From NCBI RefSeq assembly GCF_003334255.1, contig NZ_QOWU01000022.1: a stretch of 64,000 nucleotides of DNA. One strand, written 5' to 3'. The notes under the pieces are model-generated. The model did no database searches, was not told the DNA's origin, and was given only the letters and a program-made list of their open reading frames with translations. Both the position numbers and the translations under genes were made by a program. This DNA comes from Escherichia coli (lineage in GTDB: Bacteria > Pseudomonadota > Gammaproteobacteria > Enterobacterales > Enterobacteriaceae). Of this stretch, positions 2,253-38,753 are shown one piece after another; position 1 is the first letter of the stretch, and each line of letters opens with the position of its first letter.

Positions 2253-3071
2253 AGCAACCTCCGTGAAAATGAATAATAATCCGCACATATTGCATGTACA
2301 ACATGTCGGGCGGATGAGATAAGCGAGTCGACATCTGGCGTTACCGGGGAATATCAGAAAAATGTCATGGTTATGTGATGATTTAGTCTGGGATTTTACT
2401 TCAGAGAAACGGGTGTCTGTTTAGTCAACAAAATAATCACAAACGCAACGGATGGGTTCTCGACGTTATTCACGACAGGCTCGTACATTACAGCGAGTAA
2501 TAAAAAACCTGATATGCAAAGTCAAACCAATATTCATAATGTCTTTTTATTCACAACAATAAATAATTCAATAACAATCATTGAAATGAATGATGGTTTG
2601 TATAAGGAATATACGCTACCGCCCCACCCTGATAACATGATCTGCACATTGCCATCTTAACGTCGTTAAACACTAGCTTAATAGTGGATATTTCAAATTA
2701 GGAATTTATTAAATTCACCTGATGAATATAATAAGCAAATAGCATAGAAAATAATGACAACTCCCCCGAGGGGACCATTTCCAAAGCACTGCACCACCAC
2801 CTGGTGCCGGATGATCTTGCTTCAGTGGTAAGAGTACCTGATGCATTGTTCCCAAAATGGTGTTTTCCCCTGCCCCTCCAATAATGTGTAGCTCTCACTT
2901 GATAATCTATTGATTAGGTTATATTAAGAATCAACATTTAAAATACATCCATTTTCTTGAATAAATCAACATGTTTATTAATCAATTGCTGTTTTAGCTC
3001 TGACTCATCAAGCTCTCCATATTTGTCCTACAGATAATTGCGAATAAATACAGAGAACGCCATTTATCCTT

Positions 3072-36005: not shown

Positions 36006-36284
36006 TACCGTTGTCTCTCGTCCAGGTTTACTCCTGATAGAAAGTCATCGGCATTTGACGGTAATTACTTACGACTAAAAGCCTCTTTGCGTCACATTTT
36101 TACAACAATTATTGCAGAGAAGATTAATGCTATTGGAATGAAGAGAGTAACGAATGGCTAAACCGAATGACGAAAAATTCTGGAAAACAGCACGCAATTT
36201 CGTGAAGTGATTATTTCGTCCCTAAGGAAACCTCATAGGATGCCTGCGGGTGCCTGAGACTTTCTGTTTTCAGGCTAACCGGGA

Positions 36285-36335
36285 ATCAGAAAGACGAAGG
36301 CCCAGACCGATATTTCTATCAACCGAGGCCAACGA

Positions 36336-36345
<10 letters not shown>
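36285..36345 (-). ncRNA. sokB: Probable SokB antisense RNA region (approximate coordinates)
   Basis: Position antisense to the mokB translation-initiation region, inferred from hok/sok architecture; boundaries not determined from sequence. Confidence 0.3.
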
Positions 36346-36543
<198 letters not shown>

Positions 36544-36614
36544 GGGCAAGCGCGGGGATTTTCCCCGTGCATCTGACTAGCGGATTCATTTTCTCATGGC
36601 ACCCCTTTTACACT

Positions 36615-36788
36615 TCAGTTAGTGCATGTTTTTTTCGATGCACTAATAGAACCATCATTACAGACAAATTTGCCGCCTGCCGTACAGTGTGAGATCCCCC
36701 CTTTCGAACCAGAACAGGGTTTGCGCCCGGCATCGGCATAAAAGGAAACAAGCGTTCCCATAAACAAAATAAGTGCCAGTTTTTTCAT
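36615..36788 (-). CDS. ydcA: Small secreted protein YdcA (57 aa)
   Basis: Not in ORF track. Reverse strand ATG after GGAGGT SD; MKKLALILFMGTLVSFYADAGRKPCSGSKGGISHCTAGGKFVCNDGSISASKKTCTN. Confidence 0.65.
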   Translation of the reverse strand: MKKLALILFMGTLVSFYADAGRKPCSGSKGGISHCTAGGKFVCNDGSISASKKTCTN

Positions 36789-36958
36789 ATAACCTCCATG
36801 GTTTATCGAATCTTATGTTCGATTTGAACGTTATACGCTGGTTTATTTTGATACCGTTGATGAGATCAAAGATCGGGTGAATTGATTAAAAATAAGGCAG
36901 ATGGACGTATGGGCAAGGATTATGGTTTTATTTGTCATACAAATAAATATAATAGGCG

Positions 36959-37022
36959 CTTCCGATGTAGACCCGTATTCTTCGCCTGTACCACGGGTCG
37001 GTTTTAGTACAGGCGTTTTCTT
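36959..37022 (+). ncRNA. rydC: Hfq-dependent small RNA RydC
   Basis: tataat -10 element immediately upstream; transcript cttccgatgtagacccgtattcttcgcctgtaccacgggtcggttttagtacaggcgttttc ends in a hairpin plus U-tract; lies between ydcA and cybB. Confidence 0.6.
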
Positions 37023-37032
37023 TAAATATCCT

Positions 37033-37563
37033 TCAAGAACGTTTACGCGGCATCATGCGTAGAAGTGTGTTGTCCTTCCAGAAATAGTGGTGTGCCAGTG
37101 CAGCCGCAGCGTGCAACCCGATGACAAAATATCCCAGATTCGCCAGCGTCTCATGCCACGACTTTAAGCTATCTACCCGTTCGAAATTGGCCTCTGAAGC
37201 GAAAGGCATCGTCAAACCAAACGCAAACCACGGGTTGCCCCGGTTATACATCATCACCAAACCAATCACTGGCAGCGCAATAAACAGGAGATAAATCACC
37301 AAATGTCCCAAATGCGCCAGTCCCGTCATCATCGGTTTTGGCTTAGGTATAATCGGCGGGGTCGGGTATTTCAGCCTTAACAAAAGACGAACCACCATCA
37401 GCACGAGAATTGAGATGCCGCAGGAAACATGAATCATGTTGATGAGCGGCCGATCGCTACGTGGGAAGAAACCCCGAAACTCCATTGCGCAATACGCTGC
37501 GATAACCAGTAAAAAGACCAGCCAGTGAATGCTGATTTGTAACCTTGAATATTTATTTTCCAT
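37033..37563 (-). CDS. cybB: Cytochrome b561 CybB (176 aa)
   Basis: ORF 37033..37599 trimmed to ATG at 37563 (MENKYSRLQISIHWLVFLL...). Confidence 0.85.
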   Translation of the reverse strand: MENKYSRLQISIHWLVFLLVIAAYCAMEFRGFFPRSDRPLINMIHVSCGISILVLMVVRLLLRLKYPTPPIIPKPKPMMTGLAHLGHLVIYLLFIALPVIGLVMMYNRGNPWFAFGLTMPFASEANFERVDSLKSWHETLANLGYFVIGLHAAAALAHHYFWKDNTLLRMMPRKRS

Positions 37564-37751
37564 AACATTTCCTGCTTTAACATAATTTTCCGTTAACATA
37601 ACGGGCTTTTCTCAAAATTTCATTAAATATTGTTCACCCGTTTTCAGTACGTTACGTTTCACTGTGAGAATGGAGATTGCCCATCCCGCCATCCTGGTCT
37701 AAGCCTGGAAAGGATCAATTTTCATCCGAACGTTCCTGACAGGAGAAAACC

Positions 37752-38753
37752 ATGAGTAAAGTTGGTATTAACGGTTTTGGTCGTATCGGTCGACTGGTGT
37801 TGCGTCGATTACTTGAAGTCAAAAGCAACATAGACGTTGTCGCTATTAATGATCTCACTTCCCCAAAAATTCTCGCCTACCTGCTGAAACATGATTCAAA
37901 CTACGGACCATTCCCCTGGAGCGTTGATTTTACGGAAGATTCACTTATCGTTGATGGGAAAAGTATCGCGGTTTACGCCGAAAAAGAGGCTAAAAATATT
38001 CCGTGGAAAGCGAAAGGTGCAGAAATCATTGTCGAATGTACTGGCTTTTATACCTCCGCCGAGAAATCGCAGGCGCATCTTGATGCTGGTGCGAAGAAGG
38101 TGTTGATTTCCGCCCCTGCCGGTGAAATGAAAACTATCGTTTATAACGTCAATGACGACACTCTGGATGGCAACGACACCATTGTTTCCGTGGCGTCATG
38201 CACCACTAACTGTCTTGCGCCGATGGCCAAAGCCTTGCATGACAGTTTCGGGATAGAAGTCGGCACGATGACGACCATTCATGCCTATACTGGCACCCAG
38301 TCACTGGTGGATGGCCCGCGTGGTAAAGATTTACGTGCTTCACGCGCCGCGGCAGAAAATATCATTCCCCACACTACGGGGGCGGCAAAAGCCATTGGTC
38401 TGGTGATACCGGAACTGAGCGGCAAACTGAAAGGTCATGCGCAACGCGTACCGGTGAAAACAGGTTCGGTCACTGAGCTGGTGTCCATTCTCGGAAAAAA
38501 AGTGACTACCGAAGAGGTGAATAACGCACTTAAACAAGCAACCACCAATAACGAGTCATTTGGTTATACCGATGAAGAAATAGTCTCTTCCGATATCATT
38601 GGCAGCCATTTCGGTTCGGTGTTTGATGCCACGCAAACGGAAATTACCGCCGTGGGCGATTTACAACTGGTGAAAACGGTCGCCTGGTACGATAACGAAT
38701 ATGGCTTCGTCACGCAGCTTATTCGCACCCTCGAAAAATTCGCTAAACTCTGA
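37752..38753 (+). CDS. gapC: Glyceraldehyde-3-phosphate dehydrogenase GapC, uninterrupted 333-aa frame
   Basis: ORF track; AGGAG SD; NAD-binding GFGRIGR and catalytic SCTTNC motifs. Confidence 0.9.

Follow-up and report, generated by a model that had tools for sequence, protein, structure and literature searches.

Two questions are raised by the 64,000-nt stretch of Escherichia coli DNA analyzed here (the window): does the spacer between ydcA and cybB encode the small RNA RydC at positions 36959-37022, and is the short reading frame at 13028-13123 the gene yncL? The first-pass annotation had proposed both names from the letters alone, describing the former as a tataat -10 box followed by a transcript ending in a hairpin plus U-tract, and the latter as a 31-codon frame with a good Shine-Dalgarno sequence (SD) between ortT and patD. 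Both names hold up, and for RydC and YncL alike the proposed positions agree to the base. We regard it as nearly certain that the window is E. coli chromosome and that the two features are the known rydC and yncL, with the full mechanism proposed below. Both are already known and belong, as ordinary genes, to the core genome of E. coli, so that nothing new is claimed for either. Identity, coordinates, helices, S2 covariation, seed-target complementarity, operator match, and synteny come from our own analysis; RydC transcription, YieP repression, Hfq binding, RNase E protection, and the induction and effect of YncL come from the literature, and for this strain transcription, translation, and regulation are inferred from the identity with K-12. 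The rydC and yncL regions are 100% identical to those of E. coli strain G1/2 (NZ_CP060083.1).

The first locus comprises the following genes.

36615..36788, minus strand: ydcA, a 57-aa periplasmic protein, divergent from rydC (RefSeq; NCBIfam NF007462, 143.7 bits against a cut-off of 118)
36959..37022, plus strand: RydC small RNA, 64 nt
37033..37563, minus strand: cybB (cytochrome b561), convergent with rydC (RefSeq); its stop codon lies 10 nt past the RydC 3' end

The RNA reads CTTCCGATGTAGACCCGTATTCTTCGCCTGTACCACGGGTCGGTTTTAGTACAGGCGTTTTCTT on the plus strand, starting with CTTCCGATGTAGACCC and ending with GGCGTTTTCTT. A covariance-model search with Rfam cmscan matched RF00505 over model positions 1-64 of 64 with 92.5 bits (gathering score 48, E = 5e-17), one of two matches above the gathering score in the whole window. 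Alignment with K-12 MG1655 b4597 gave 64 identities in 64 positions, and a 141-nt alignment differed in the flanks only; the K-12 annotation extends one base further, to the window equivalent of 37023. The placement in the ydcA-cybB spacer proved correct, with neighbors as in K-12, and cybB also adjoins RydC in two orthologues from outside Escherichia (L012 and L013). A single copy per genome was found in 5,416 of 5,426 complete E. coli genomes. Five matches to the wider rydC region (36400-37700) fell on E. coli records labeled as plasmids, for which either misassigned replicons or true transfers are possible.

The same nucleotides could in principle belong to a small ORF or to the 3' end or terminator region of cybB. 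The mechanical ORF list does contain two plus-strand frames over RydC (36901-37062, 53 aa, and 36882-37007, 41 aa), and the cybB stop codon is very close. Against this reading, the structure-aware Rfam match is full length and far above its threshold, the curated K-12 record has an ncRNA and no CDS at the locus, the cross-genus conservation tracks RNA helices, where compensatory changes occur, and does not track a reading frame, and no U-tract comes after the hairpin when it is read on the cybB strand. The probability left to it is negligible, and it can be considered effectively refuted already. The segment is thus read here as the RydC gene.

None of the RefSeq records that were sampled (12/12) carries a feature under the RydC match, and in the strain G1/2 record the ydcA-cybB spacer is left without annotation, although yncL is annotated. 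Among the records viewed, the curated K-12 record NC_000913.3 alone lists "small regulatory RNA RydC" (b4597). Because rydC is unannotated in PGAP records, a track based on ORFs or CDSs will always show this spacer as empty despite the regulator and operator that it holds. That PGAP/RefSeq records annotate yncL yet omit rydC is a practical annotation point; the biological significance of the present observations is very small, since rydC and yncL are textbook genes of K-12 whose mechanisms have been published.

The RNA can be folded into an H-type pseudoknot composed of two helices, S1 (nt 12-18 with nt 35-41, seven pairs) and S2 (nt 25-33 with nt 49-57, nine pairs), in which all 16 of the 16 pairs are canonical; it is of the H type because the 5' arm of S2 sits in the S1 loop. 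Its elements are located as follows.

36970..36976, plus strand: S1 5' arm (nt 12-18), seven canonical pairs with nt 35-41
36983..36991, plus strand: S2 5' arm (nt 25-33), in the S1 loop, nine canonical pairs with nt 49-57
36993..36999, plus strand: S1 3' arm (nt 35-41), from pairing and alignment
37007..37015, plus strand: S2 3' arm (nt 49-57), also the terminator stem, from pairing, folding, and alignment
37016..37022, plus strand: U-rich tail UUUUCUU, the terminator tail and Hfq proximal-face site (the role follows PMC4337610)

The description of the 3' end as a hairpin plus U-tract holds in part: nt 25-33 and 49-57 do pair and are followed by UUUUCUU, but the pairing is the pseudoknot helix S2 and not a simple hairpin. 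S1 is the helix that is included in the Rfam RydC model, and it has experimental support, as G37C and G39C mutants destabilize RydC and the crystal structure with Hfq displays the fold (PMC4337610). The same structure defined the Hfq contacts, which comprise the 3' U-tail together with UU steps at nt 23/24 and 46/47, and the corresponding elements (U23 U24, U46 U47, and the UUUUCUU tail) are present in the window.

Covariation was examined in a variant set made up of three Escherichia-clade loci, two divergent E. coli alleles, and five metagenome orthologues from outside E. coli, all five of which scored above the Rfam RydC threshold; a further metagenome match, L011, was rejected by Rfam as a chance hit. 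The metagenome search required a base other than A at nt 19, and the taxon labels of the metagenome loci were assigned from synteny only. A contig search with the pattern CTTCCGATGTNGACCCGTNNNCTTCG was too strict, returning three Escherichia loci only and missing the common E. coli variant A13G. In a profile search with minus-strand ORFs of the metagenome loci (start codon trimmed), FrmR did not reach its curated cut-off, and no match was obtained for the L012 "methyltransferase".

In the resulting alignment of seven distinct sequences, 97.5% of cells held standard pairs, compared with 24-44% in slid registers. Four of the nine S2 pairs were changed on both sides across genera, with 100% of cells paired and none broken; as the seven sequences represent about three lineages (Escherichia and two other enterobacterial ones), these compensatory changes amount to few independent events. 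S1 showed no two-sided change, and two of its pairs vary on one side and are retained as G.U wobbles in the naturally occurring E. coli alleles A13G and A35G; the sample is biased for this helix because the search patterns fixed its 5' arm. Minimum-free-energy folding returned S2 only (z = -0.48 against shuffles), which is no argument against the pseudoknot, since the method is unable to represent one. A simple terminator scan flagged another, weaker hairpin at 36984-36998, which was disregarded because the loop limit of the scan (3-8 nt) excludes the 15-nt loop of S2.

Upstream of the RNA, two elements were located.

36930..36944, either strand: putative operator of YieP, a GntR/FadR-family repressor, palindrome ATTTGT-CAT-ACAAAT (motif match)
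36948..36953, plus strand: rydC -10 box TATAAT (read from the sequence)

The -10 box had been called correctly and ends 5 nt ahead of the first transcribed base. A sigma-70 scan upstream of rydC found no two-hexamer promoter and no -35 element, and the published description is of a "perfect -10 box ... no obvious -35 box", with 20-fold repression by YieP in E. coli and no mapped operator (PMC11340327). The 15-bp palindrome lies 3 nt upstream of the -10 box, in the place usually taken by a -35 element. Read on the minus strand as ATTTGTATGACAAAT, it agrees at every position with the YieP ChIP-exo motif atTTGTaTGAcaAAT (PMC7642389). This exact match is the single one in the window, and none of 100 shuffles gave one; allowing up to three mismatches gave 6 occurrences in the window where 2.6 were expected, which is no enrichment, so that only the exact match is meaningful. 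The second-best match in the window, ATCTGTAGGACAAAT, has two mismatches and is located at 3021-3035 on the minus strand. The operator was considered as a new observation and rejected as such, because PMC7642389 already contains the motif and lists both rydC and ydcA as YieP targets.

In the cross-genus alignment nothing upstream of the palindrome aligns, and conservation starts at its left edge. From this position, YieP would likely act by promoter occlusion: the sigma-70 promoter expected to drive rydC has a consensus -10 box but lacks a -35 element, and the operator abutting the -10 box would keep the gene off in standard conditions. In a Citrobacter-like metagenome orthologue (L016, positions 189-279 of a 1.2-kb contig), RydC, the -10 box, and the right YieP half-site are kept and the left half-site is replaced by unrelated sequence; rydC may have escaped YieP control there.

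At position 36934, a low-information position of the motif, the window has G and K-12 has A. Exact 60-mer counts showed both alleles to be common, with the window type (G) in 2,250 genomes and the K-12 type (A) in 1,235. With the G, the window operator fits the published consensus perfectly, and from this it could be argued that E. coli lineages differ in the tightness of rydC repression and, through it, in the cfa set-point, cyclopropanation, and acid tolerance. We hold this to be rather unlikely; if it were true, K-12, the strain of the published E. coli experiments, would carry the weaker operator.

The 5' end of RydC contains the element through which the RNA is known to act on cfa.

36961..36971, plus strand: 5' seed, RydC nt 3-13 (UCCGAUGUAGA), pairs with the cfa mRNA leader

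Pairing was computed on the K-12 punC-cfa intergenic region, that is, with the K-12 cfa leader, which is present at 95% identity or more in 5,425 of 5,426 E. coli genomes. RydC nt 3-13 and leader positions -109 to -99 form an 11-bp contiguous duplex with one G.U pair (E = -18.3 kcal/mol), which was equaled in 19 of 2000 shuffles of the seed and 27 of 2000 of the target and is therefore only moderately unusual (about 1%). The duplex spans G-100/A-99, the published RNase E cut in the cfa leader, which falls between GG and AUUAU and from which RydC pairing protects (PMC6755755). In the computed pairing, RydC C4 lies opposite G-100, with a one-base numbering offset from the compensatory pair C4G/G101C described for RydC and cfa in the same work (PMC6755755). 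RydC pairing has also been reported to inhibit Rho-dependent termination at cfa (PMC11340327).

Taken with the literature, the elements of this locus would be connected as follows. The pseudoknot would leave the 5' end of RydC single-stranded, with Hfq expected to contact the U-tail and the loop UU steps; the seed could then pair with the long cfa leader right over the RNase E site, and this pairing would stabilize the cfa mRNA, leading to more cyclopropane fatty acid synthase and to altered membrane lipids.

Weaker, repressed targets of RydC have also been reported, namely yejABEF, csgD, pheA, and trpE, and the main role of RydC in this strain might instead be their repression (csgD affecting curli and biofilm), through S1 and loop residues that become available upon opening of the pseudoknot. 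Repression of csgD through the unfolded pseudoknot has been published (PMC3985669), and pheA and trpE are confirmed direct targets, but their repression was described as "modest" as opposed to the "substantial", approximately 9-fold activation of cfa (PMC11340327), and no part of the RNA is more highly conserved than the seed used for cfa pairing, with nt 1-12 invariant in 7/7 distinct orthologues. A mainly repressive role thus appears improbable to us, and the activation of cfa is retained as the main role; the repressor and activator roles are compatible and not mutually exclusive.

Several other features were observed near rydC. The segment 36248-36543 corresponds to a hokB/mokB/sokB type I toxin-antitoxin locus, with the following parts.

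36336-36503, plus strand: mokB
36394-36543, plus strand: hokB

The Rfam "sok" family RF01794 matched at 36248-36399 on the plus strand (101.1 bits); as this is the strand of hokB and mokB, what it covers is the leader of the hok mRNA rather than the antisense Sok RNA. Transferring the K-12 coordinates would put sokB on the minus strand at about 36290-36346. In E. coli strain E69, an Escherichia-clade representative (locus L006), two tandem Rfam sok/hok matches were found beside RydC at 1742-2389, which suggests a duplication of the hokB locus in that lineage. The 3' end of hokB is overlapped in antisense by a 22-aa ORF at 36521-36589 on the minus strand, which the K-12 annotation names yncP (b4774) and the annotation of this strain calls a hypothetical protein. 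Beyond cybB, the annotation of this strain has gapC (37752-38753, plus strand) as an intact gene for a type I glyceraldehyde-3-phosphate dehydrogenase, whereas the K-12 MG1655 copy is a pseudogene (b4493).

The second feature lies in the region between ortT and patD, a placement confirmed by the RefSeq annotation of the identical record.

12660..12833, minus strand: ortT, flanking yncL (RefSeq)
13016..13021, plus strand: yncL SD AAGGTG, 6 nt before the ATG (sequence)
13028..13123, plus strand: yncL CDS, 31 aa, MNVSSRTVVLINVFAAVGLFTLISMRFGWFI
13146..13180, either strand: perfect inverted repeat (14-bp stem, 7-nt loop) separating the convergent yncL and patD (sequence)
13220..14644, minus strand: patD, flanking yncL and convergent with it (RefSeq)

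The identification as yncL, with 31 codons and a good SD, was upheld. The protein matches K-12 b4598 at 30 of 31 residues (V13 for F13) and the NCBIfam equivalog NF000537 over profile positions 1-30 of 30 with 72.5 bits (cut-off 35), and the RefSeq record of strain G1/2 lists a "stress response membrane protein YncL" at the matching position. The mechanical ORF is 34 aa long, as it starts from the upstream GTG at 13019; this start is disfavored because the SD overlaps that in-frame GTG. That the ORF track covers neither feature, as stated in the first-pass annotation, is plausible, since RydC is non-coding and the yncL frame is so short. The start of Salmonella yncL has likewise been argued to be three codons past the annotated GTG (PMC5437024), and the window shares the Salmonella arrangement, with GTG at 13019 and ATG at 13028. 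Hydropathy analysis indicated a single hydrophobic span, the best 19-aa window covering residues 7-25 with a mean Kyte-Doolittle value of 2.22 and with R6 and R26 at its edges. The gene is present in 5,412 of 5,426 complete E. coli genomes, and in 5,410 at 95% DNA identity or more.

A sigma-70 scan upstream of yncL found no promoter. By eye, CTATACA at 12992-12998, about 30 nt upstream of the ATG, resembles a sigmaS-type -10 element (TATACT with C at -13), which would be in keeping with sigmaS dependence as reported for the yncL orthologue of Salmonella (PMC5437024). The inverted repeat at 13146-13180 is followed by no T-run on either strand, and the terminator scan flagged nothing there; three differences from K-12 at 13165-13167, in the stem top and loop, lengthen its stem by one pair. 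The 1.2-kb region 12500-13700 was matched in one piece in 4,245 of 5,416 E. coli genomes, with 6,589 places in total; set against the 5,410 genomes with an intact yncL, about 1,170 genomes seem to have an insertion or a variable segment near yncL, ortT, or ydcY.

The yncL locus could alternatively work as a non-coding small RNA rather than as a protein gene, given that the Salmonella orthologue was first listed as the sRNA STnc1110 and deemed non-coding, and that its FLAG-tagged product went undetected in Salmonella (PMC5437024). In that same work, however, a translational lacZ fusion of STnc1110 was expressed and the orthologue was shown to be translated and sigmaS-dependent, and the ORF in the window has a well-spaced SD, a curated equivalog match, and the DNA conservation in 5,410 genomes given above; in addition, the YncL protein itself has been detected in E. 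coli and investigated (PMC12542507, PMC10470546). We consider the non-coding reading very improbable and treat yncL as a protein gene. Its expression is induced by heat shock and in minimal medium (PMC12542507, citing Hemm et al. 2008, 2010), its production causes partial membrane depolarization and nucleoid condensation (PMC12542507), and its cleavage is RseP-dependent in vivo and not in vitro (PMC10470546). In this strain, yncL would therefore, by analogy with K-12, be predicted to give a 31-residue single-pass inner-membrane protein under stress, which would partly depolarize the membrane when made. The literature is in agreement with the initial description of rydC and yncL as short elements, regulatory or stress-associated (PMC11340327, PMC6755755, PMC12542507).

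Compared with known systems, the RNA in the window corresponds to the RydC of K-12 (b4597) and Salmonella (RF00505) in its 64-nt sequence, neighbors, TATAAT without a -35 element, pseudoknot, seed, and cfa complementarity; relative to K-12, there are zero differences inside the RNA, and the promoter differs by the G for A at 36934. Two other small RNAs act at the same place in the cfa leader: ArrS has a site that overlaps that of RydC and also blocks RNase E cleavage, whereas CpxQ shares the cleavage site but represses (PMC6755755). Both are unrelated to RydC in sequence, are encoded elsewhere, and lack its pseudoknot. YncL shares with K-12 b4598 and NF000537 the length of 31 aa, the start, the SD, the ortT-patD position, and the single transmembrane span, and differs from the K-12 protein by one conservative substitution within that span (V13 for F13). 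In one class with YncL is YohP, a small membrane protein of 27 aa that is induced by stress; when produced, both proteins depolarize the membrane and condense the nucleoid (PMC12542507). YohP is the product of a different gene with a different sequence, absent from the window.
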